Of a stretch of 64,000 bases of DNA, positions 120-64,000 are shown piece by piece (positions within the stretch are counted from its first letter, which is position 1; every line of letters starts with the position of its first letter). Below the pieces are notes generated by a model. It had not been told where the DNA came from and did not search any database. It saw only the letters and a list, made by a program, of their open reading frames with translations. The position numbers were made by a program, and so were the translations under genes. The DNA comes from Mobula hypostoma (lineage: Eukaryota): contig NC_086097.1 in assembly GCF_963921235.1 (NCBI RefSeq), positions 88,290,001 to 88,354,000 of the forward strand. The letters run 5' to 3'.

Positions 120-1120
120 TTCAAAGATTCAAAAGATTCAAAAAAAACTTTGTCATTCTAACCATACATCAGCTCTGCAGGGCAGAATGAGACAGCGTTT
201 CTCAGGGGCAGTGCAATCATAACATAACAAACGCAGCACTAAATAATAAACATAACAATAAATAGTAAAACACAACAGCCACATGTCCGTTAAAATCAGT
301 TATAAGTGCCCAGTGCAAGTTAAAAGTGTCCAAAACAGAGTCAGGTGGAGCAGCTATTTAGCAGTCTGACTGCCTGTGGGAGGAAGCTGTTTAGTAGCCT
401 TGTGGTTTTAGTTTTGATGCTCCTGTAACGTTTGCCTGATGGCAGAAGAACAAACAGTTCATGCAGAGGGTGTGAGGGGTCTTTAATGATGTACCGTGTC
501 TTCTGGAGGCATTGACTCTGAAAGAGGTCTTGGACAGAAGGTAGGGAGACCCCAATAACCTTCTCTGCTCCCCTAACCACCCTCTGCAAGGCTTTTTTGT
601 CGACAGCACTGCAGCTGGAGTACCAGGTTGTGATGCAAAAGGTCAGCACACTCTCAACCACGCCTCTGTAGAATGTAGTTACGATGTTAGTGGAGAGTGA
701 TGCTTGTTTAAGCTTCCTCAGAAAGTGCAATCTCTGCTGGGCCCGTTTCACAATCCCAGTGGTGTTCCTGGACCAGGTGAGATCGTCCGAGATCTGCACC
801 CCAAGAAATTTGATGTTTTCCACTCTCTCCACTGTGGAGCCGCTGATGCTGAGGGGTGTGTGCTCAGGCTGAGACCGTCTGAAATCGACGATCATCTCCT
901 TGGTTTTGGTGACATTAAGCATCAAGTTGTTATCCCTGCACCAGCTCTCTAGGTGTTTGATCTCCTCCCTGTACATAGTTTCATCATTTTTGCTGATGAG
1001 CCCCACCACTGAGGTATCATCTGCAAATTTAATCATCAGGTTCTCCTTGAATCTGGCTGCACAGTCATGTGTTAGCAGTGTAAACAGCAATGGGCTAAGC
1101 ACACAGCCTTGTGGGGATCC
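120..1120 (-). mobile_element. Rex1/Babar-clade non-LTR retrotransposon, 5'-truncated, young
   Basis: Open RT C-terminal frame (GSPQGCVLSPLLFTLLTHDC, KFADDTSVVGLIS, WCRDNNLMLNVTKTKEMIVDFRR, LPSGKRYRSIKTKTTRLLNSFLPQAVRLLN) to stop at 341; T-rich 3' UTR ending in TTGAATCT-type tandem tail near 120-140. Confidence 0.9.
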
Positions 1121-1290
1121 ATTTGCAATCAGTTTGCTTTTAATGTAGCTATAGAAGCCCTTGGGATTCTCTTTCAACTTTTCTGCTAGAGCAACCTCAT
1201 GTCCTCTTAATTCTCCAGATTTCTCTGAAGTGTTCTCTTGCATTTCTTATACTCTTTGAATACCTCACTTGATCCTAACTGCCTGTACAC
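1121..1290 (-). mobile_element. CR1 ORF2 fragment
   Basis: Encodes RGHEVALAEKLKENPKGFYSYIKSK, matching CR1 ORF2 segments at 59513 and about 63830 in this window. Confidence 0.75.
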
Positions 1291-13803: not shown

Positions 13804-14615
13804 AAACAACAGGAATTCTGCAGATGCTGGAAATTCAAGCAACACACATAAAAGTTGCTGGTGAACACAGCAGGCCAGGCAGCATCTGTAGGAAGAGGTG
13901 CAGTCGACGTTTCAGGCCGAGACCCTTCGTCAGGACTAACTGAAAGAAGAGTGAGTAAGGGATTTGAAAGTTGGAGGGGGAGGGGGAGATCCAAAATGAT
14001 AGGAGAAGACAGGAGGGGGAGGGATGGAGCCAAGAGCTGGACAGGTGATTGGCAAAAGGGGTATAAGAGGATCATGGGACAGGAGGTCCAGGAAGAAAGA
14101 CAAGGGCGGGAGGGACCCAGAGGATGGGCAAGGGGTATATTCAGCGGGACAGAGGGAGAAAAAGGAGAGTGAGAGAAAGAATGTGTGTATAAAAATAAGT
14201 AACAGATGGGGTACGAGGGGGAGGTGGGGCATTAGCGGAAGTTAGAGAAGTCGATATTCATGCCATCAGGTTGGAGGCTACCCAGATGGAATATAAGGTG
14301 TTGTTCCTTCAACCTGAGTGTGGCTTCCTCTTTACAGTAGAGGAGGCCGTGGATAGACATGTCAGAATGGGAATGGGATGTGGAATTAAAATGTGTGGCC
14401 ACTGGGAGATCCTGCTTTCTCTGGCGGACAGAGCGTAGGTGTTCAGCAAAGCGGTCTCCCAGTCTGCGTTGGGTCTCGCCAATATATAAAAGGCCACATC
14501 GGGAGCACCGGACGCAGTATATCACCCCAGCCGACTCACAGGTGAAGTGTTGCCTCACCTGAAAGGACTGTTTGGGGCCCTGAATGGTGGTAAGGGAGGA
14601 AGTGTAAGGGCATGT
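13804..14615 (-). mobile_element. Penelope-like element 3' end: GIY-YIG endonuclease, pyrimidine-rich UTR, pseudo-LTR
   Basis: Open frame FTCESAGVIYCVRCSRCGLLYIGETQRRLGDRFAEH..VATHF..EQHLIFHLGSLQPDGMNIDF to stop at 14232; pLTR about 13804-13940. Confidence 0.92.
13902..13937 (-). ncRNA. Minimal type I hammerhead ribozyme motif (Penelope-associated)
   Basis: Minus strand AGUC-CUGACGA-AGG(GUCUCGG)CCU-GAAA-C-GUC-GACU: intact core, stem I AGUC/GACU, stem II AGG/CCU, GUC cleavage triplet, vestigial palindromic stem III. Confidence 0.8.
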
Positions 14616-15189
14616 GTCGAAGAAAGTGTCCCGAAGGTGTGGGAGGGTCTGGGATAGGGACACCAAGTACCTCCCTTGGTCAATTTCTGCCTGTTGCTGG
14701 GCAGTTTACCTTGGTGTATGAATGGAAGGGTGGTGAAGACCTGGGGGTCATATAGCAAATTGTGCAGGCTGAGAGGGTGAGGCACTACATAGTGAGCAAA
14801 TGGAAGATGTTTTGCAACAGCAGCAGTCCTCGGTGTGTGACTGAGAGTGGGCAGAAGCACAGTAATGTGCAATCCTGTTTTTGTGGGAGCTGTCCCAGTC
14901 AAGGTTATGAGGGTCCACCATCGTCTGCAGAGGCTGAAAGCTGGTTTCTCAGGTATTCAATTATTATTTTTGACTGACAATAATTCTGAGATACATTTCT
15001 GTGGCAATTTCTAACATTAGCCATTAATCAATCAGCAAACAAAATGGAGCAGACATCGATAGGTTGTATCAGTATTTTATGAATGTAATATAATTGTCAA
15101 ATAAAGCAAATTTGATTTGTATGATTTATGCATTATTTTAAATCTCAGAAGGATGATCCAGTGCTTCAGCAGTGTACTGCCATACATCA

Positions 15190-35300: not shown

Positions 35301-36160
35301 CCTGTTGAGTGTGTGGAAGCAAGGGCTGGAGATCTTGCACTGCAGAACCAAAATTGCACTCTGCTATGAGGGACTTGGGAGACTCTGCCCTGGGTGCTGT
35401 TAGACAAATAAATCTGGCAACTGAACCATATTCTTTTAAAAAGTCTAGTATTTCCTCATCCTTTTCTGCTTTTGTAATGACACTGATTAAAACACCATCT
35501 GGGATTTTAACACCCTTTTCCTCCATGACATCTATTTGCTTTCACTGTAGGTTTTAATTAAACAAAAGTATGTTTGAACAATAAGATTCTTTTAGTACTA
35601 ATCAGTATACTATCTAATAAACTGCCTCCCAGCTGGCTTGCCAAGTTTTATGTAACACCTGTGTAGTGCTGGTCTGATCTTGTGTGACTGGTCACTGCAC
35701 TCTTTATGAGAAAATCTAATTACATAGTATACACCAGGTGCTACTGGGTCATCAGAAGCTCTAGGTATTGAAAGGAGACAGTGAATTGAAAACACACGAT
35801 CCTGAAAGTAAGTTTTATTTTTTTAAAAAAGGAATACAAAATACGTACATGAGTAAGAGCAATTCAAAATTCCAATACTCTGGTTTAAGTTCCAAATCTT
35901 AGATATCAACAAAAACCAAATTCCCCTTAGTTAGAATCAGGAAGATTTGTTAGAGAAATTGGAGTAATAAAGGTTATTCTAACTAATTAGATCTAGTGTT
36001 ATTCTCTATTTAAAACTTTACAGACTAACATTTGCCTTTTTGTTTATCCCAGTTAATTAAGAAACTAATTAAATTTCTATTTTCAACTATTATGGTTAAC
36101 TTCAGGTTAGTATGTCTACGAATTCAAATTCATTGTGTGTGTGTGTTTTCTTTTCAGTCA
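32399..36160 (-). mobile_element. Gypsy LTR element with PNMA-type gag and protease, RT/RNH/IN absent
   Basis: Direct-repeat LTRs from 32399 and 35651 (about 500 bp); tRNA-Arg-like PBS TGGCAAGCCAGC on minus below 35645; gag PPEIQRVIVEHIVR, YIELLDTAFATMEDGDELVTKF, CFKCGEDGHIASSC knuckle near 34045-34090; protease CLLDT near 33760. Confidence 0.88.
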
Positions 36161-36399
36161 CTTATTAAAGCCCTTACAAAAATAATCATTTTTTCCAGAA
36201 AATCAAATTCAGATCTTTCAAATGAGAAGCAGAATTATACGAATTATACATTCTACTGTATTAAATCCTCTACGTCTTAAAGCATTCTTTTCCCATGCTG
36301 GTTCTTTGATTTTGGGTGGCTTGTCATGTGTTTCTTGGTTGATTGGAAGAATTGATGGGTTATCCATGGAAGGTCTATTCACAATACTTGCACAAAAAA

Positions 36400-36950
36400 A
36401 AAACCCTGATCGGTATATAACAGGATTACAGTATGTAAGTTCTGGTACGCATTCTATTTTTGATTTAAATAATTCATTATCACATTGTCATTTCCAAACA
36501 TTCCTCAGTTACAACACTACTAAAAATATTTCACACACAAATTGTACACTCAAAACAGTAGAAGTGTTTTAACTCACCACATCCCTTGTAATAACTTAAT
36601 AGAACTAATTCCCAGTTACATGGTAGAGATCTTGGATACTTGTCTCTGTTGATATTGTCTCACTGTAGCTGGTGCTCACTATAGCTGTAACTTCAATAAA
36701 TCTTTTATTGATATAGTTTCTCCTCCAGGGGTTTCACTCAGAGGATATCCAGTAAGTAGGATAGAGATACCAACTAACAACTCCATTTTTAACAGTTTAT
36801 ATCTTTTGTTAGTTTTTATAGTTTGCTATGCTTCTGTCACTTGTCCACAGTTGCGCCAGCAATGCCTCATTCTCCATAGCTTTTTTTTCAAGTTCATTTT
36901 TTAAAAATTTGTAAACCTCATTTTTATCCCTTCACAAGAGGAGCTTTCTA
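36400..36950 (-). mobile_element. Degraded L1/Tx1 ORF2 C-terminal fragment
   Basis: Minus-strand RHCWRNCGQ knuckle remnant near 36850-36875; A-rich 3' end near 36390-36403. Confidence 0.45.
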
Positions 36951-36984
36951 ACATTGCATCTTTGGCTTTAATTAACCTGGGTTA

Positions 36985-38295
36985 CAACAGCACAGAAACA
37001 GACCCTTTGGCCTTTCTAGTCCATGATAAATATTTAACTTGCCTACTCCCAACAACCTGCATCGGGACGATAGCCTGTATACCCCTACCATCCATGTACC
37101 TATCCTATCTTCTCTTAAAGATTGAAATTGAGCTTGAATGCACCACTTGTGCTGGCAGCTCATTCCACATTCTCTTGACCCTCTGAGTGAAGAAGTTTCC
37201 CCTCATGTTCCCCTTAAACTTATCATCATTCACTCTTAACCAATGACCTCTTGTAGTACACCCAACTTCAATGGAAAAAGCCTGCTTGCATTTAACTTAT
37301 CTATACCCTTTATAATTTTGTATACCTCTATCAAATCTCCTCTCAATCTTCTATGTTCCAAGGAATAAAGTTCTACCCTATTCAATCTTTCCTTTAATCT
37401 AGGTGCTCCAGACCTGGAAACATCATTAAATTTTCTCTGTACTCTTTCAGCCTTATTTACATCTTTCCTGCAGGTAGGTGATCAAAACTGCACACAATAC
37501 TGCAAATTAGGCCTCACCAATATCTTAAACAACTTCAACATAACATCCCATCTCTTGTACTCAATACATTGATTTATGAAGGTCAATGTGCCAGAAGCTT
37601 TCTTTACAATCCTATCTACCTATGATACCACTTTCAATTAACCTGTACTCCAAGATCCCTTTGTTTTACCACTCTCCTCAGTGCCATACCGTTCACAGTG
37701 TAAGCCCTACCCTGGTTGTTCCTACCAAAGTGCAATACCTTGCCCTTGCCTGCATTAAATTCCATCTGCCATTTTTCCAGCTGGTCCAAATCCTGCAGCA
37801 AGCCAAGATAGGCTGCCTTGCTGTCCACTGCACCTTCAATCTTGGTGTCATCTGCAAATCTGCTGAACCAGTTAACCATACTATCATCCAGATCATTGAT
37901 ATAGATGGCAACAAACAGTGGACCCAGCAACACTTGTCAGAGAGGCAACCATCTACTACCACTCTCTGGCTTCTCCTGCAAAGTCAATATCTAATCCAAT
38001 TTACTACTTCATCCTGAATGCCAAGTGGCTGAACCTTCTTGACCAACCTCCCAGGTGGGAGCTTGTCAAACGCCTTACGAACGTCCATGTAGGTAACATT
38101 CACTGCCTTGCCTTCATCAGCTTTCCTGGTAACTTCCTCAAAACTCTAAGATTGGTTAGACATGACCAACCACACACAAAGCCATCTTGACTATCCTTAA
38201 TCAGTCCATGTCTATCCAAATACTTGTATATCTACTCCCTCAGAATATTTTCCAATAATTTTCCTAGAACCGATCTCAGGCTCACCAGCCTATAA
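36985..38295 (-). mobile_element. CR1 RT-to-3'-end fragment
   Basis: LLGPLFVAIYINDLDD..RFADDTKI..WQMEFN; CR1 3' UTR near 36985. Confidence 0.9.
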
Positions 38296-38424
38296 TTTCA
38301 TAGGGAATCGTGGACGCAATGAAATTGCCAGTGTTTAATATAAATACTGAATTTACAGTATTCAGAAACATAGAAAACCTACAGCACAAAACCTTTGGCC
38401 CACAAAGCTGTACTGAACTAATAT

Positions 38425-38947
38425 CGCTCGCTTTGGGTCGCATCTGGAAATTCCATTTGGCGGACAATTTCTCTCCATGCCGCTCTGACATATTGGGAAA
38501 TCATGTACTTGACAGGTTAGTGACCTTCACCTACTCCCGGGAGAGTTGAAAGAGATCACCACCTCTTGCAGTGGATAACCAGGATGTCTAAGTGCCTTGT
38601 CGTGTTGTTAGCGCTTCACTAACGTCTGCTGGCCTGCCTTCTTGACCGTTGGACTATTAACTGGTCTCTTCCCCTCAATCCGCCATGGCCAGACTTCACA
38701 CGCTGGGATAGGCAAATCCCCTACCTCACCGAGGGTTGAAGACCTGTCAGTTACCTTCACCTGGTTTGGCCCGTCTGCTGAGACGGTTTACCGGGGTTTG
38801 GCTGCTGCGCGTGCTACAGCTACTTGGAGCCACGGGTGAGAGCTGAGCGCCTGGTGGGGACCAAGGGTGGCCGAGCTGCCCTGAAAAGGGGCCCAGCATG
38901 CACCCCCACCAGAGGTGCTACCCCTCTCTAGACACCCCATACACCCC
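38425..38947 (-). mobile_element. Short non-autonomous RTE-type retroposon, apparently full length
   Basis: 11-12 bp TSD (C)TGAACTAATAT at 38413-38424 and 38947-38958; GC-rich structured 5' end GGGGTGTATGGGGTGTCTAGAGAGGGGTAGCACCTCTGGTG; short GAGC-type tail; no coding remnant. Confidence 0.75.
38757..38947 (-). ncRNA. Candidate HDV-like self-cleaving ribozyme
   Basis: Elements occur in HDV order P1-J1/2-P2-P3-L3(UCC)-P3'-P1'-GG-P4-GCCAA-P2'; see findings. Confidence 0.55.
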
Positions 38948-39069
38948 TGAACTAATATACTAGTATGTATATTAATATGAATACTAATACTTATATTAGT
39001 GATATATTATATCGCTAGTATTTCACAATTAGTGATGGTGACTATTACTATCACTAATGCTATTATAGC

Positions 39070-41875
39070 CATTAGTGAAACCGTGTTTGTGGGGGTGGGA
39101 TGAAGAGGACCAACAAGGTCCACATTGACATGGTCAAACTATAACTCGGGGTACTCAGAAGGTGCCAATGGTGCATGAACATGATGATTAATTTCTGCCT
39201 GCTGGCAGTCCACACAAGCTGCAGTCCAATCAAGCACACGTCCTTTTGAAGTCCGTGGCACACAAACTTTAGTGCAACCTGTTTTCATGAAACCTTTGGG
39301 CCTGGATGCGAGAGGCCACGTATGGAGTCGAAAGCACTCTGTCTCTGGTTTGTGGTCATGATGGGGCGAGGGCGACCAGCTGAGATATTGCACAAGAGAG
39401 AAATCCCGGCATCTCCGAACTTAATGTCAGCTAACCACAGACCCGTGACTGTGTTTGGTAAGCCTGGATCTCTGGATAAGTAACTTCATCAACTGCCACG
39501 CCGGCATAGTCAACCCCTATGTGGACCCTCAAAGGCTGGCCATGAGAAGCGATCAGCCAGGGCATTATTCATCCCCTTAATATGTTCCCCTATATATCAG
39601 TTGTGAACTCTGACATGTAGGCCAGGTGGTGTTGCTGCCGTGCAGGCCAAGGGTCTGAAATTTTGGCCATCGTGTGCACAAGAGGTTTGTGGTCTATGAA
39701 CGCTATGAAATGGTGACCCTCTAGAAGAGAACAAAAATAGCAGACAGCCAGATAGAGACTGAGAAGCTCACGGTCAAACGTAATGTACTTCCTTTCGGTT
39801 GGACAGAGTGCTGGCTGAAGAAGACTGCTACACACCTCTGAACAGCTGTTTGTGCACACCACCCACAGCATAGTCTGAAGTGTCAGTCGCCATGGCTATG
39901 GTGTGTTATTGAACGGGTGCGCCAGTAGAGTCGCATTAGAAAGAGCTCGTTTGGTATCATCAAATGCCCTGGTCATGTTCACTGACCAGTCAAGCACTTG
40001 ATTAGGAGTACTGCCTTTGAATGCGCTATACAGTGGGGGCATAAAAGAAAATCTAAGTATTTCAATTGAGTCTTATCAGCTGTTGGAAAGACTGTGCTGC
40101 ATTTTTCAGTCCAAACAGCATTAACAAAAACTGAAAGGCCAAACAGGGTTATGACATCCGTTTTAGGAATGTCCTCCAAGCGCACAGGCATCTGATGGTA
40201 GTCCCTAACTAGATCAAATTTGGGGGAAAAAAGTTATCTTTCCAGCTGAATGTGCTGAAAAAACCTTGAATGTGTGGGATTGGGAATGGTGGCCTCATTA
40301 AGGTGTTGGTAATCACCACATGGGCGGCAACCACCATCGGACTTGAGGACCGTATGGAGGGGTGCACCCCAGGGGCTATTCGAACTGGGTACAATACCAA
40401 GCTTTTCCATGCTGGCAATCTTAGCGTTTGTGGTTGCTAGCTTTTCTGGGTCCAGTCTATGTGCGTGAGCGTGAACTGATGGGCCGGTTGTGGGAATGTG
40501 GTGCTCAACTCCACGTTTTGTGATTGTAGTGGAGATTGTTGTCTTGGTGAGGTCCGGGAATTCACCCAGCAATTGAGTAAACTTGCATGTGGTGGTGCAT
40601 GCCTTGGCAGATTCATTCTGGGGGACTTACTGAGGGAGCAGGGTAACGACTCATATTCCTTGACAACCACAAATCGGCATTTCTTAAGATCGACCAACAG
40701 ACCTTGGGCACATTGGAAATCTGCGCTGAGCAGAGGTCTAGCCACCCTAGCCAGGATGGAGCAGAGAGTCATGTCCCGTAAGTCTTGATCCTGCTGCCGT
40801 TGGCAGCCTCCAGCAAGGTTTTGTCGCTCTTTGCCTTCTCATCAATAGGCAATGCTGGCAGCACACTCAGTCGAGCACCCGTGTCACAGCGGAAGTGTCG
40901 CCCTGAAAAGGCGTCTGTAATGAACAGTAGACAACCCTGCTGGTTCACAGACCTCTGATGTCCCAACGTGCTGGCAGTGTCGAAGCTGCAAGTTGGTCGA
41001 CACTTCCTAGCATTCCTACCAAAGCGAGCATGATAAAAGCACAGGCCTGGAATTGTCTGTTTTACAGCTGTGGGTGTCCTTATGTTGGGGGCCTTGCTAA
41101 CCAGGCTTATTGAGGTAGAGAAAGGAGGAGAAATAATGCACCGCTGCCTGGTGGAGTGTAGATTATCAGCTATCTTAGCAAGCTCCCTATAGTTCATCAT
41201 GGGTGCATTAGCGAGGGCTATGCGAATTTCATCAGCAATTTACTGCATGAAGAGTTCTTTAAAAATAAAACAAGGGTGGTGATTTCCCAGGAGAGACAAC
41301 AGGTGGTCCATTAGCTCCAAAGCATCACCGGGACCAAGTAAGGAGAGCAACTGTTTGATGCGCTCAGACTCCGATAGTCCAAAAGACTGTAAAAGGCGAG
41401 TTTTCAGCGATCTGTATTTATTGTGTTCAGACGGGTGTTCAAGCAGACTTTCCACTCTTGCAGCTGTGAAATTGCTGAGTGATGGTGCCACATAGTAAAA
41501 TTTGGTGTCGTCCATGGAAATTTCTTGCAGAGTGAATTGGGCCTCAGCTTGTATGAACCAAGTAACAGCATTTTATTCCCAAAACTCTGGCAGTTTCAAA
41601 GTGACTGCATTTGCCAATGTATTCAATAACTCCAGAATCATCCTAGAGCATCAGGGTCACCAATGTAGGTTTTCACAAATGAAACAAAGTGAAGCGTTTT
41701 ATGTTTAATGAAACCCGTAACACATGTTATTGAACTTCAAAAACCTACATGCAAAAACACGCTAAAAATTCTTACATAACATCATCATGTCTGACCAGCC
41801 TCTTAAAGCAAATCCCCAACTCAAAAGTCGGTGGTTGTGAAGTATGTACATTTCTCCCAGTTACATTACCCTACA
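39070..41875 (-). mobile_element. CsRn1-clade Gypsy LTR retrotransposon, 3'-truncated
   Basis: LTR 41664-41875 with TGTAGG/CCTACA termini; tRNA-Trp PBS TGGTGACCC; gag KLPEFW..WFIQAEAQF with CX2HX9CX3C motif (CFYHARFGRNARKCRPTC); protease DTGA; RT SNSPWGAPLH..RPCGDY; RNH YITFDRELL..DHKPL; truncated in integrase. Confidence 0.9.
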
Positions 41876-41879
41876 CTGT

Positions 41880-42310
41880 GCCCTGCATCTTAGGTGTAAC
41901 TGCCTCTCTAGATCCTATCCATCATCCCCTCAGCCTCCCGAACGATCCGGAGTTCATCCAGTTCCAGCTCCAGCTCCTTAACACAGTTTGTTAGAAGCTA
42001 CAGCTGGATGCACTGCTCGCAAGTGTACTGGTCAGGGGCACTGGAGCTCTCCCTGCCTTCCCACATCCCAGAAGGGGAGCATTCCAGTATCCTGCCTGGC
42101 ATCTCTACTGTTTTAATTGAGCAAATATAAAGAAGAAAGAACAATAAACTGTGGGGGGGGGAGGTGTAACTCTACCTACAGCTTTTTGCTTTCTCTCTCT
42201 CAGCTTCCCTTCTCAGAAGCCTCGAAGATCTAAAACCTGAAAATCCACCTTCTAACTCTGTCCACTCCAACAATGGTAGCTCTGCCTGCCCCACCCCACT
42301 TTAATTTGTC
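41880..42310 (-). mobile_element. CR1 5' UTR and ORF1 start fragment
   Basis: Minus LQLLTNCVKELELELDELRIVREAEG, homologous to 3050-3125. Confidence 0.8.
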
Positions 42311-53900: not shown

Positions 53901-54987
53901 CACTACAGCAACTGATTTTCTTCTTAGTTTAAATTATCTGACTTGTAGGATCCAGATCCCAACTCCAATTGAAGTGATGTTTAACCTAATTGAATGATTC
54001 CTGCATTCCCTGGTAATGTTGCTAGTACCCCATGGGTAGCAATACACTCAATGTCACTGTTTAAGCCGTGCATTCAACTCTCTGATCATTTTATTTTCCT
54101 CAGTCAATTCATACACAGCTCAGAGAATATTTCACTTCACCTTATTTTAAGCTCAAATTGGTACTTAAAGACCTGGCATTGGGTTTTGGCTGGGAGGTCC
54201 CACTGTTAGCTGTAAGAGTCTGGAGACCAAAGGTAAAGGAGCATTTGTGCAAATATGTAGAACAGCCCCAACCTTGTCTCTCCAAACTCCCCCACAAGCC
54301 CAATTTCCACCCAAAATGTTTTCAAAATTTAGCCTGAAGACCGTCATGCTAATTTCCAGGAGTGTGGAGGTAGAGCTCTCTTTTTAGTGCAGTTCTCTCT
54401 TTTATGCCCAGGGGCAAAGATCAGCAAAGGGTCCTTTATCACTTACCCTCCTGTAATGTTTAGATGTCCAGTGGTTATAACCTGAGGCACAAGAGCAGTC
54501 ACCTGCTGCAAACCAGAGTAGAACTGACGTCTCTGTTGCCTTCTGCAAGTTCTTTCCAGAAATAAAAAATGGCCAGATAATAGGTTACAGCTGATTGAGG
54601 TGATTAGATAAAAGAAATGAAGTGGAGACTGGATTCTATTGAAGCTAAACTGAAGAGTATTTTGTAACCATCCATTTCATTTCACAGCTTGTTTAAGGTT
54701 CAGTTCTTTTGTATCGGTGAGTCTGTGCACAGTGTTGATAAAGAGAAAAGGAGTAATCTGTCTTTAAGTAATGCTGTTATTGCACTGTTTGTATTTACTG
54801 GAGAATTCTGGGGGAAAATGCCCTTGATATTAACACTTCAAAGACAGATGAGTTTAGTTATTGGAAGCACCTTTCCTGTGCCACACACAAACCCACAGCT
54901 GTTATATGGCAACTGATTGCAATAATTCAGTGTGCCATAGGGCACAGACCAATAAAGCACAGGAACAAACCCTTCAGTCTGTAATGT

Positions 54988-59160: not shown

Positions 59161-59512
59161 CCACTTTGCAGAATATTGTATAGAAATACAGAATTTTCCT
59201 GTTAAAGGATCTTGGCCCATAACATCATTTTTTAAAAATTCCTCTCCATAAATGCTGCCTGACTTGCTGAATTCCTTTAGTTTTTTTGTGTGTTGCTCAA
59301 GATTTCCAGTGTCTGCAGAATCTCTTGCCTTTAAGAATTGTTTTAATGCCTTGTTAAAACTGAAACCTGATCTTAACCTGTGGCATTATTTTAGATGATC
59401 ATTTTGATTTTGGTTTGAGAGAAAGGTCAGTGATAGATCTTTCTCTTCATTGACAGGATAATATTGTGATTAGGCACTTGATATTTCAATATACCACTAT
59501 TGGTATATTGTA

Positions 59513-61276
59513 GTGAAGGATAATCCAAAGAGCTTTTACAGGTATATTAAGAGCAAAAGGATTGTAAGGGATAAAATTGGTCCTCTTGAAGATCAGAGTG
59601 GTCAGCTATGTGCGGAACCAAAGAAAATGGGGGAGATCTTAAATAGGTTTTTTGCGTCTGTATTTACTAATGAAACTGGCATGAAGTCTATGGAATTGAG
59701 GGAATCAAGTAGTGAGATCATGGAAACTGTACAGATTGAAAAGGAGGAGGTGCTTGCTGTCTTGAGGAAAATTAAAGTGGATAAATCCCTGGGACCTGAC
59801 AGGGTGTTCCCTCAGACCTTGAAGGAGACTAGTGTTGAAATTGCGGGGGCCCTGGCAGAAGTATTTAAAATGTCGCTGTCTACGGGTGAGGTACCGGAGG
59901 ATTGGAGAGTGGCTCATGTTGTTCCGTCGTTTAAAAAAGGATCGAAAAGTAATCCGGGAAATTATAGGCTGGTGAGTTTAACATCGGTAGTAGGTAAGTT
60001 ATTGGAGGGAGTACTAAGAGACAGAATCTACAAGCATTTGGATAGACAGGGACTTATTAGGGAGAGTCAACATGGCTTTGTGCGTGGTAGGTCATGTTTG
60101 ACCAATCTATTGGAGTTTTTCGAGGAGGTTACCAGGAAAGTGGATGAAGGGAAGGCAGTGGATATTGTCTACATGGATTTCAGTAAGGCCTTTGACAAGG
60201 TCCCGCATGGGAGGTTAGTTAGGAAGATTCAGTCGCTAGGTATACATGGAGAGGTGGTAAATTGGATTAGACATTGGCTCAATGGAAGAAGCCAAAGAGT
60301 GATGGTAGAGAATTGCTTCTCTGAGTGGAGGCCTGTGACTAGTGGTGTGCCACAGGGATCAGTGCTGGGTCCATTGTTAGTTGTCATCTATATCAATGAT
60401 CTGGATGATAATGTGGTAAATTGGATCAGCAAATTTGCTGATGATACAAAGATTGGAGGTGTAGTAGACAGTGAGGAAGGTTTTCAGAGCCTGCAGAGGG
60501 ACTTGGACCAGCTGGAAAAATGGGCTGAAAAATGGCGGATGGAGTTTAATACAGACAAGTGTGAGGTATTGCACGTTGGAAGGACAAACCAAGGTAGAAC
60601 ATACAGGGTTAATGGTAAGGCACTGAGGAGTGCAGTAGAACAGGGGGATCTGGGAATACAGATACAAAATTCCCTAAAAGTGGCGTCACAAGTAGATAGG
60701 GTTGTAAAGAGAGCTTTTGGTACATTGGCCTTTATTAATCAAAGTATTGAGTATAAGAGCTGGAATGTTATGATGAGGTTGTATAAGGCATTGGTGAAGC
60801 CGAATCTGGAGGATTATGTTCCGTTTTGGTCACCAAATTACAGGAAGGATATAAATAAGGTTGAAAGAGTGCAGAGTAGGTTTACAAGGATGTTGCCAGG
60901 ACATGAGAAACTCAGTTACAGAGAAAGGTTGAATAGGTTAGGACTTTATTCCCTGGAGCGTAGAAGAATGAGGGGAGATTTGATAGAGGTATATAAAATT
61001 ATGATGGGTATAGATAGAGTGAATGCAAGCAGGCTTTTTCCACTGAGGCAAAGGGAGAAAAAAACCAGAGGACATGGATTAAGGTTGAGGGGGGGAAAGT
61101 TTAAAGGGAACATTAGGGGGGGCTTCTTCACACAGAGAGTGGTGAGAGTATGGAATGAGCTGCCAGATGAGGTGGTAAATGCGGATTCTTTTTTAACATT
61201 TAAGAATAAATTGGACGGATACATGGATGAGAGGTGTATGGAGGGATATGGTCCGTGTGCAGGTCAGTGGGACTAG
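59513..61276 (+). CDS. CR1 ORF2 reverse transcriptase, 5'-truncated but uninterrupted (587 codons)
   Basis: NYRLVSLTSVVGKLLE, QHGFVRGRSCLTNL, DFSKAFDKVPH, GVPQGSVLGP, KFADDTK; lacks endonuclease and ATG start; 3' UTR and TTCTATGG tail to about 61350. Confidence 0.92.
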   Translation: MKDNPKSFYRYIKSKRIVRDKIGPLEDQSGQLCAEPKKMGEILNRFFASVFTNETGMKSMELRESSSEIMETVQIEKEEVLAVLRKIKVDKSLGPDRVFPQTLKETSVEIAGALAEVFKMSLSTGEVPEDWRVAHVVPSFKKGSKSNPGNYRLVSLTSVVGKLLEGVLRDRIYKHLDRQGLIRESQHGFVRGRSCLTNLLEFFEEVTRKVDEGKAVDIVYMDFSKAFDKVPHGRLVRKIQSLGIHGEVVNWIRHWLNGRSQRVMVENCFSEWRPVTSGVPQGSVLGPLLVVIYINDLDDNVVNWISKFADDTKIGGVVDSEEGFQSLQRDLDQLEKWAEKWRMEFNTDKCEVLHVGRTNQGRTYRVNGKALRSAVEQGDLGIQIQNSLKVASQVDRVVKRAFGTLAFINQSIEYKSWNVMMRLYKALVKPNLEDYVPFWSPNYRKDINKVERVQSRFTRMLPGHEKLSYRERLNRLGLYSLERRRMRGDLIEVYKIMMGIDRVNASRLFPLRQREKKTRGHGLRLRGGKFKGNIRGGFFTQRVVRVWNELPDEVVNADSFLTFKNKLDGYMDERCMEGYGPCAGQWD

Positions 61277-61739: not shown

Positions 61740-64000
61740 TTAATTGTGGAAAGGAAGTATATATGTGAGGCAGGTTTTCTGTGCTCAGTGTCAGATGTGA
61801 GAGGTCCTGGAGTCTCCCAGCCACCCGGACGGCCATATCTGCATCCGGTGTGTCAAGCTGCAGCTCCTTAGGGACCGAGTTAGGGAACTGGAGATGCAGC
61901 TCGATGATCTTCGTCTGGTCAGGGAGAGCGAGGAGATGATAGAAAGGAGTTATAGACAGGTGGTCATTCTGGGGCCATGGGAGACAGACAAGTGGGTAAC
62001 AGTCAGGAGAGGAAGGGCAAGAGTCAGGTACTAGAGAGTACCCCTGTGGCTGTACCCCTTGACAATAAGTATGCCTGCTTGAGTACTGTTGAGGGGGACA
62101 GCCTACCTGGGGGAAGCAACAGTGGTCGTGCCTTTGGCACAGAGTCCGGCCCTGTGGCTCAGAAGGGTAGGGAAAGGAAGAGGAAGGCAGTAGTGATAGG
62201 ATGCTCTATAGTTAGGGGGTCAGACAGGTGATTCTGTGGATGCAGGAAAGAAACTCGGACGGTACTTTGCCTCCCAAGTGCCAGGGTCCGGTATGTTTCA
62301 GATCGTGTCCAAGGTATCCTGCAGTGGGAGGGAGAACAGCCAGAGGTCGTGGTACATATTGGTACCAATGACATAGGTCGGAAAAGGAAAGCGGTCCTGA
62401 AAACAGACTACAGGGAGTTAGGAAGGAAGTTGAGAAGCAGAACTGCAAAGGTAGTAATCTCGGGATTACTGCCTGTGCCATGCGACAATGAGTATAGGAA
62501 TAGAATGAGGTGGAGGATAAATGCGTGGCTGAGGGATTGGAGCAGGGGGCAGGGATTCAGATTTCTGGATCATTGGGACCCCTTTTGGGGCAGGTGTGAC
62601 CTGTACAAGAAGGATGGGTTGCATTTGAATCCCAGGGGGACCAATATCCTGGCAGGGAGATTTGCTAAGGCTACTGGGGAGAGTTTAAACTAGAATTGTT
62701 GGGGGGTGGGAACCGAACTGAAGAGACTGGGGGAAGAGGCGGTTCGCTCACAAATAGAGAAAGCTTGGAGACAGTGTATGAGGGAGGATAGGCAGGTGAT
62801 AGAGAAGGGACGCGCTCAGACAGACAGTTTGATATGTGTCTATTTTAATGCAAGGAGTATTGTGAACAAAGCAGATGAGCTTAGAGCGTAAATCAGTACT
62901 TGGAGCTATGATATGGTGGCCATTACAGAGACTTGGATGGGTCAGGGACAGGAATGGTTACTTCAAGTGCCAGGTTTTAGATGTTTCAGGAAGACAGGGA
63001 GGGAGGCAAAAGAGGTGGGGGCATAGCAATGTTGATTAGAGATAGTGTCACGGCTGCAGAAAAGGTGGACGTCATGGAGGAATTGTCTAAGGAGTGTCTG
63101 TGGGTGGAGGTTAGGAACAGGAAGGGGGTCAATAAATTTACTGGGTGTTTTTTAAAGGCTGCCCAATAGTAACAGGGATATCGAGGAGCAGATAGAGAAA
63201 CAGATCCTGGAAAGAAGTAATAATAACAGAGTTGTCGAGATGGGAGATTTTAATTTCCCAAATATCAATTGGCATCTTCCTTGATCAAGGGGTTTAGATG
63301 GGGTGGAGTTTGTTAGCTGTGTTCAGGAAGGTTTCTTGACACAATATGTAGATAAGCCTACAAGAGGAGAGACTGTACTTGATTTGGTATTGGGAAATGT
63401 ACCTGGTCAGGTGTCAGATCTCTCAGTGGGAGAGCGTTTTTGAGATAGTGATCATAATTCTATCTCCTTTACAATAGCATTGGAGAGAGATAGGAACAGA
63501 CAAGATAGAAAAGTGTTTAATTGGAGTAAGGGGAATTATGAGGCAAACAGGCAGGAACTTGGGAGCTTAAATTGGGAACAGATGTTCTCAGGGAAAAGTA
63601 CGGAAGAAATGTGGCAAATGTTCAGGGGATATTTGTGTGGAGCTCTGCATAGGTACGTTCCAATGAGACAGGGAAGTTATGGTGAGGTACAGGAACCATG
63701 GTGTACAAAGGCTGTAATAAATCTAGTCAATAAGAAAAGAAAAGCTTACAAAAGGTTCAGAGAGCTAGGTAATGTAGATTATAAGGCTAACAGGAAGGGG
63801 CTTAAGAAGGAAATTAGGAAGGCCAGAAGGGGCCATGAGAAGGCCTTGGCGGGCAGGATTAAGGAAAACCCCAAGGCATTCGACAAGTATGTGAAGAGCA
63901 AGAGGATAAGACGTGAAAGCATACGACCTATCAAGTGTTACAGTGGGAAAGTATGTATGGAACCGGAGGAAATAGCAGAGGTACTTAATGAATACTTTAC
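61740..64000 (+). mobile_element. CR1 LINE: ORF1 (zinc finger, SGNH esterase) and ORF2 endonuclease, runs off window
   Basis: CAQCQM..HICIRCVKLQLL, VVIGCSIVRG, VVVHIGTND, DGLHLN; EN CVYFNARSI, VAITETW, MGDFNFP, LDLVL, SDHN; several stops and frameshifts. Confidence 0.92.

Follow-up and report, generated by a model that had tools for sequence, protein, structure and literature searches.

We describe, in the 64,000-nucleotide window (the whole stretch of DNA that was analysed), what is probably a once-active variant of the HDV-like ribozyme, standing on a dead copy of a hybrid retroposon. In the account that we consider likely, the 5' UTR end of an RTE-type LINE heads a short hybrid retroposon, and the predicted HDV-like ribozyme in this head cuts before the first base, G1, which would set the uniform 5' end of the copies. 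The ribozyme motifs that an earlier note on this DNA had placed on the minus strand were re-read in the sequence, and all were present as placed (Table 1).

Table 1. Positions in the window of the retroposon, its target-site duplication (TSD) and the parts of the predicted ribozyme.
Feature	Position	Strand	Remarks
Non-autonomous retroposon, family A	38425..38947	(-)	523 bp; 45 substitutions vs family majority
Upstream TSD	38948..38958	(-)	11 bp; G at 38947 matches too, giving 12
Downstream TSD	38414..38424	(-)	
3' terminal short repeat	38425..38433	(-)	AGCG type; ACG repeats at the end of other copies
Body and tail common to tRNA-headed SINE family D	38434..38565	(-)	majority nt 383-523; tail module from ~38491
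Remainder of RTE-LINE-derived 5' UTR	38567..38752	(-)	element nt 196-381
HDV-like ribozyme fold (predicted)	38753..38947	(-)	predicted cut 5' of G at 38947; first 195 bases of element
P1 5' strand	38941..38947	(-)	
J1/2 domain, 97 nt	38844..38940	(-)	predicted closing stem 38937-38931 (second GGGUGUC) / 38851-38845
P2 5' strand	38832..38843	(-)	window copy U to C at 38834
P3 5' strand	38829..38831	(-)	
Canonical L3 part	38821..38828	(-)	U20 38828, C21/C22 38827-38826, G25 38823
L3 insert	38803..38820	(-)	5-bp hairpin 38820-38804 and one linker base (majority G, here A)
P3 3' strand	38800..38802	(-)	
P1 3' strand	38793..38799	(-)	window copy C to A at 38798
P1.1 GG (38792-38791) and J1.1/4	38787..38792	(-)	
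P4 hairpin, 6 bp	38771..38786	(-)	
J4/2	38766..38770	(-)	predicted catalytic C at 38769
P2 3' strand	38753..38765	(-)	bulged C at 38764; window copy G to A at 38756

The limits of the element are set by its TSD, ATATTAGTTCA(G), found at 38958-38948(7) and again at 38424-38414(3); the resulting 12-base direct repeat (38947-38958 / 38413-38424) bounds a 523-base insert. The start at 38947 was thus found again, and the predicted cut 5' of G1 falls on the boundary given by the TSD, as had been claimed. The host, described earlier as about 520 bp long, without an ORF or a visible Pol III promoter, proved to measure 523 bp, with a longest ATG ORF of 50 aa and no B box in the family A majority. With a TSD, dispersed copies, a short 3' repeat and no ORF, it is a non-autonomous non-LTR retroposon. 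The window copy departs from the family majority at four places in or near the core, affecting a single pair of P1, two of P2 and the final base of L3; at all four the contigs of four DNA sequencing runs from other organisms carry the majority letter. Having lost one P1 and two P2 pairs, it probably cleaves poorly or not at all, which agrees with the earlier suspicion that mismatches in P1 and P2 may inactivate it. No empty-site contig for the locus was present among the contigs listed for four DNA runs. A broken integrase-like frame (39090-39480, minus strand), which we take to be Gypsy-like, shares the strand of the element and lies some 150 bases upstream. Other retroelement remains in the window, comprising RT frames, a GIY-YIG frame and a GDSL-esterase frame, are found at 59474-61276 (+), 341-1246 (-), 14232-14705 (-) and 62232-62693 (+).

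We then looked at the other copies in the genome that contains the window (3.48 Gb). The 40 best matches, self aside, were 85-87% identical to the element over nearly its whole length. A 22-mer spanning the internal junction was matched exactly at 138 places in the genome and occurred in 16 of the 30 best copies, which puts family A at a few hundred copies; a figure of thousands was dropped, the 3225 initial candidates being a mixture of several families. As the earlier note had proposed to check, the majority of 30 family A copies restored the pairing of P1 and P2. A TSD was found in 20 of the 30 best copies, and in 16 of these 20 the end lay no more than 1 nt from G1. These 30 copies are biased to full length. 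To avoid that bias we selected copies by a motif 360 nt downstream of the start, taking the first 30 among the 138 matches to the junction 22-mer (5 overlap the best set and 2 share flanks). In this junction set 20 copies started at position 1, 2 at position 2 and 3 at positions 6-8, and 5 were truncated, at 25-203. Contigs leaving the element at 38947 into unrelated sequence numbered 72, 67, 50 and 36 in four DNA runs from other organisms. The 5' ends, another point put forward for checking, are thus uniform.

Inserted copies show no sign of maintenance. Among 53 A copies non-CpG decay was 3.1% in the core and 3.0-3.4% elsewhere in the element, so no selection on the genomic copies was seen and the inserted copies are to be regarded as fossils. 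All nine core features were found together in 7 of 40 parsed A heads (49 rows, 9 unparsed), and UCC and G25 were each present in 39 of the 40. The heads of L006, L013, L024 and L183 are nearly intact, each departing from the majority core by a single base. None of the 19 shared non-CpG subfamily variants fell in the core, which makes up about 73 of about 466 sites (P ~0.04); this avoidance is a weak sign that the fold was needed in the source copies.

Searching with a pattern that allowed another continuation after nt 381, we obtained 558 matches. The first 30 were mostly a 560-base family, B; five were B with an inserted tRNA-type SINE and one was a LINE. In the sister set B, 18 of 30 starts were at position 1. 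Family B consists of the 5' 517 nt and the 3' 44 nt of LINE-B and is therefore a plain bipartite derivative, and nt 1-381 of our element are about 80% identical to the 5' UTR of the same LINE. When LINE-B loci were taken by protein similarity, 4 of 11 were full length and all four started at G1, with a TSD at two. The same head was found on the older family H (13% from its own majority) and on L102, an RTE-type element with an open endonuclease frame on a metagenome contig, which was the single match of the head pattern in metagenomes; viral and prokaryotic collections gave none. A second LINE, LINE-G, encodes an AP endonuclease, an RT and a weak C2H2 finger in a single frame. We take LINE-B and LINE-G to be of RTE type from their ORF architecture and the usual criteria, not from a clade classifier. 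On this comparison nt 1-381 derive from the 5' UTR of an RTE-type LINE, and the RTE connection of the head suggested earlier holds. The head is common to B, LINE-B, H and L102. Its long L3 and its doubled GGGGUGU are thus, as far as the sequences tell, traits of the LINE lineage that the short element inherited. They are not peculiar to the 520-bp host with which the note had described them.

Several observations on these families stand by themselves. The base before G1 is T in 10 of 21 A copies and, among the B copies scored, in 13 of 14; the bases preceding G1 in these copies are partly inside the TSD and partly extra. In family C (L064, L071, L074, L078, L082; about 1655-1800 of the oriented loci) a tRNA-type SINE stands at the junction of the LINE-derived parts of B, and the composite, about 700 bases long, has multiplied as one unit. 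Open frames of 1018-1129 codons in LINE copies L133, L134 and L041, which belong to three RTE-type families, indicate that several such families were active fairly recently. When LINE-G copies L134 (about 400-930), L138, L139 and L151 were set beside L137, most were without a ribozyme head and shared a GC-rich 5' end. In L134 this end runs into an intronless coding piece of the glyoxalase family (PF13669, E 1e-11), presumably akin to methylmalonyl-CoA epimerase, and L138 has a different, RING-like piece upstream; the GC-rich end may stem from a host transcript that was taken up in place of the ribozyme head.

The rest of the element has another source. Over nt 383-523 the element matches the body and tail of family D at 85% identity. 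Family D is a SINE of 250 bases in which both Pol III boxes, A and B, are present; a pattern for its tail had 328 matches, and ARAGORN called no tRNA in 6 D or C loci. After nt 381, A is 54-56% identical to four RTE 5' UTRs, the level of shuffles (55%), whereas the four UTRs remain homologous to one another over the same interval (59-81%). The 5' part of A is thus that of an RTE LINE, and its 3' part matches SINE D and none of the LINEs fetched, in contrast to B; no B box is present in A. By these alignments the host is a hybrid of nt 1-381 from an RTE 5' UTR and nt 383-523 from the body of a tRNA-headed SINE, and the simplest reading is that a template switch joined the ribozyme-bearing UTR to the SINE body.

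We also looked for a LINE that might drive the element. No match to nt 383-523 was found in any LINE fetched, and among 60 tail-selected loci there was no LINE with the A/D tail and no RTE coding sequence adjoining it. DUF6451-type RTEs had no significant similarity to A (20 loci), and driver-LINE patterns returned only the SINE families D and F. Family F (L103-L132; 148 pattern matches) is a non-coding element of about 370 bases that has a short motif in common with the A/D body; the descriptor found no HDV fold in its majority. The A/D body itself resembles, we presume, a Bov-A-type RTE module.

A could also be a plain internal deletion of one unrecovered RTE LINE that had all of this 5' UTR; D would then have arisen later by addition of a tRNA head to the 3' part, a route to SINEs proposed in PMC5786205. 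Sister family B is just such a bipartite derivative, and A and D do not differ much in age (6.2-6.7% and 5.9% from their own majorities). However, the loss of homology past nt 381 is confined to A, which lies at background where the four RTE UTRs do not, its tail is unrelated to those of LINE-B, H and G, and the same 65-base tail is carried on a third, different head at 2 of 30 loci (L230, L231). We thus hold a plain deletion to be rather unlikely and keep to the hybrid.

Concerning the fold itself, P1, P2, P3, P4 and P1.1 follow one another in nested double-pseudoknot order, and the family majorities pair fully in P1, P2, P3 and P4. The earlier description needed some correction. P2 is present and longer than given, with 11 bp and one U-A pair across the bulged C, and in the window copy it has two mismatches, not one. 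L3 is indeed 26 nt long in this copy with an internal hairpin, which has 5 bp in place of the GCUG/CAGC stem first drawn. The second GGGGUGU exists (38938-38932), but its role as a spare P1 was not upheld: starts at position 10 were 0 among 60 internally selected A and B loci, with 6 ambiguous starts at 6-8. Its GGGUGUC pairs with GGCRCUC in the alignment fold and in the J1/2 fold of every lineage, and the repeat is predicted to be the strand closing the J1/2 stem. Duplicated P1 strands that end up in J1/2 are on record for R2 (PMC3774820). In the local minimum-energy fold the partner of U20 is the final base of L3 and that of U16 the initial base of P1', so that P2-P3 grows longer at the expense of the pseudoknot. 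For antigenomic HDV, pairing at the base of P2 has been described as switching partners (PMC2175327).

Motif searches carried little weight. An Rfam scan of 36000-42000 reported no ribozyme family at E up to 10, and the stability of the nested fold was at shuffle level (z -0.05). With L3 limited to 7-8 nt, the descriptor had 0 matches in the window. The HDV descriptor allowing a long L3, which had been put forward as a check, was run with L3 up to 40 nt and found one core in the window, the 38753-38947 site; the same relaxed descriptor found 8 cores in 12 shuffled windows (0.67 each) and 0 in 500 shuffles of the 203-nt head. A descriptor match was accordingly dropped as proof. Taken by itself, the motif pattern is close to what chance yields in a sequence as long as the window; the argument depends on the element boundary and on what the relatives show. 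At 54204-54292, minus strand, there is a weak match to the covariance model of the ribozyme (16.5 bits, E 0.008), possibly an old ribozyme fragment.

We compared the fold in five lineages, represented by the majorities of A, B and H, by the metagenome element L102 and by LINE-G; pairs were read by pattern, since rows with a short L3 were wrongly aligned by MAFFT. In P2, P3 and P4 together 18 pairs were compared and every one was kept; compensatory double changes had occurred in P4 (3 of 5 pairs) and in P2 (1 of 10), counts that reflect few events since the lineages are related. The majorities of A, B, H and L102 have a P1 of 7 bp, a P3 of 3 bp, an L3 hairpin of 5 bp, a P4 of 6 bp and a P2 of 11 bp (10 in L102) plus the U-A pair across the bulged C. 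In 18 hand-picked rows 95.2% of the cells were paired and double changes were found at 6 pairs, three in P4 and three in the J1/2 stems, with none in P1, P2, P3, P1.1 or the L3 hairpin; the shuffle control is a lenient one here, as these rows are related to one another and also served to draw the structure. Changes in the L3 hairpin were one-sided only and retained pairing. Covariation in P1 to P4, which the note had named as a check, was thus found in P4 and P2, and double changes failed to appear in P1 and P3. U20 and G25 in L3, and C21/C22 with G38/G39, mark HDV-like ribozymes according to PMC3386971 and PMC6326823; correspondingly UCC, the G at L3 position 6 and GG are invariant in the five lineages, as is C-N-A-A, while adjacent bases vary. 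J4/2 reads GCCAA, GCUAA or GCGAA, with its first C invariant and the following base variable, in keeping with the catalytic C and succeeding N-R-A of HDV-like ribozymes. G25 and C75 are required for cleavage in other HDV-like ribozymes (PMC13635239).

The main peculiarity is L3. The usual HDV-like L3 has 7-8 nt; in A, B, H and L102 it has 26-28 nt, made up of a canonical UCCnnG loop and an inserted hairpin, so that we class the fold as a variant and not as a canonical member. P1.1, P3 and L3 together are given as fifteen nucleotides in PMC3774820. A pattern for a relative with an 8-nt L3 had 0 matches. A covariance model built from the long-L3 rows, with LINE-G left out, picked out the 5' end of L137 with a score of 63 bits. 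L137 is a LINE-G copy of full length; the LINE-G protein is 65% identical to that of LINE-B, and a 19-mer from the LINE-G core matched three copies. In LINE-G, L3 is UCCUCGU (7 nt), J4/2 is GCGAA in 2 of 3 copies, P2 is unbulged with one C-G to U-A change, and the second GGGGUGU is absent. LINE-G is thus, from its sequence, a natural control, the same ribozyme with a plain 7-nt L3. It fixes the register, with 38769 as the catalytic C, 38823 as G25 and the extra 19-21 nt 3' of the canonical loop. The insert therefore falls on the side of the base after G25, which PMC3386971 reports as flexible or bulged out and poorly conserved. In the endonuclease tree the branching of LINE-B, LINE-G and L102 was not separated, which leaves gain and loss of the hairpin without order. 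A bulged C near the top of P2 (38764 / 38832) is present in all four long-L3 lineages, and LINE-G has a second U-A pair there; the long L3 and the bulged C go together and may be structurally linked. A literature search, made without supplements or the founding surveys of LINE ribozymes, the likeliest places, found no earlier report of an L3 hairpin.

In the mechanism that we propose, a source copy would be transcribed by read-through or by Pol II, and its RNA would fold as a double pseudoknot with the second GGGGUGU tied into a J1/2 stem and C38769 as general acid. The inserted hairpin would project from the flexible 3' side of L3, after the U20-G25 pair, with the active site intact, and the tail would recruit a LINE protein, probably RTE-type, for target-primed insertion. 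On the A body the ribozyme head stands where family D has its Pol III head.

Were the hairpin to block the active site, of which L3 is part (PMC4908430), the head would be a conserved, non-catalytic descendant of an HDV-like ribozyme whose 5' end comes from a Pol II promoter or an RT stop structure. The competing pairings that extend P2-P3 are in line with this; however, U20, C21, C22, G25, the P1.1 GG and C75 have stayed unchanged throughout the four long-L3 lineages, among which J1/2 and P4 have diverged to 59-87% and covary. An internal promoter would also give a uniform start, the same 77 nt of trypanosome L1Tc are reported to be both promoter and ribozyme (PMC3383444), and bipartite LINEs are viewed as Pol II transcribed (PMC5786205). 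Yet the start matches G1 of P1 to the base. A capped start is expected to leave an extra G at the 5' end of an insertion, and there was no excess of a fifth G before the element (5 of 21 in A, 0 of 14 in B). Altogether we judge a dead descendant improbable. It is very improbable that the ribozyme is active with a canonical 8-nt L3. In such a fold GGC would find its P3 partner in the three bases that open the insert, and the additional 18-20 nt would be placed between P3 and P1. A GCU able to pair with GGC does follow an interval of exactly 8 nt in A, B and H, but the hairpin fold is the more stable of the two by 3.7-4.5 kcal/mol in each of the four lineages, L102 would need two G-U pairs of three, and the LINE-G alignment puts GCC directly before P1'.

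Returning to the cleaving, hairpin-bearing form, we incline, by a narrow balance of the sequence comparisons, to a broader statement: L3 would take a natural hairpin of 18-20 nt and still cleave, defining an RTE lineage of active ribozymes in at least two distant hosts, invisible to standard HDV searches and with a with-and-without pair in one genome, and the ribozyme would serve SINEs as an interchangeable head, taking the place of a Pol III promoter on one and the same body. Searches for HDV-like ribozymes usually fix L3 at a few bases. If the long-L3 form is active, the definition of the HDV-like fold widens and ribozyme-headed LINEs are undercounted. With LINE-G as a short-L3 sister, what the hairpin does could be tested simply by exchanging the loops. 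Families A and D would illustrate two ways to a transcript 5' end on one body, predicted self-cleavage and Pol III initiation, and the pair bears directly on the head-swap model of SINE origin.

The general class of mechanism is already known; the L3 insert with a short-loop sister and the body under two kinds of head are the noteworthy parts. Ribozymes at the 5' ends of RTE and other LINEs are established (PMC6765202, PMC7936874), as are internally deleted and hybrid ribozyme-headed R2/R1 elements, for which cleavage was shown (PMC3414825), and bipartite RTE derivatives and head swaps are reviewed in PMC5786205. With mosquito drz-Agam-2 (PMC4908430), in which the P1.2-closed J1/2 domain and the long P2 speed up the ribozyme, our fold has in common the five-helix double-pseudoknot order, the predicted cut at the first P1 base, a structured J1/2 closed by P1.2, an extended P2 (12 bp there, 11+1 here) and the position at a LINE 5' end. 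Our predicted fold differs from drz-Agam-2 in the L3 of 26-28 nt with its hairpin, the bulged C near the top of P2 and the tandem second P1 5' strand. The trypanosomatid NARTc, RIME and SIDER (PMC4035085) are likewise non-autonomous retroposons headed by HDV-like ribozymes, some copies of which are disrupted; they belong to the Ingi clade and have a compact 77-nt ribozyme, with no L3 insertion in the text examined. The Drosophila R2 SIDEs and R2/R1 hybrid SIDEs (PMC3414825) resemble family A in being non-coding, with a ribozyme at the 5' end and a 3' end for the LINE protein, and the hybrids also in drawing head and tail from different elements. R2/R1 SIDEs are confined to rDNA and their ribozymes were shown to cleave, whereas family A is dispersed and its ribozyme is predicted; unlike them, it retains about 190 nt of UTR past the ribozyme, and its body is common with a tRNA-headed SINE, not with a known LINE. 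Bipartite RTE LINEs and RTE-body SINEs (Bov-A, RTESINE, WALLSI; PMC5786205) share the make-up of a 5' UTR and a 3' tail, exactly so in B, and the RTE-body SINEs also the swapping of heads between families. In those described in PMC5786205, small-RNA heads stand on LINE-derived bodies and the ribozyme is lost, whereas here ribozyme and tRNA heads coexist on the same body.
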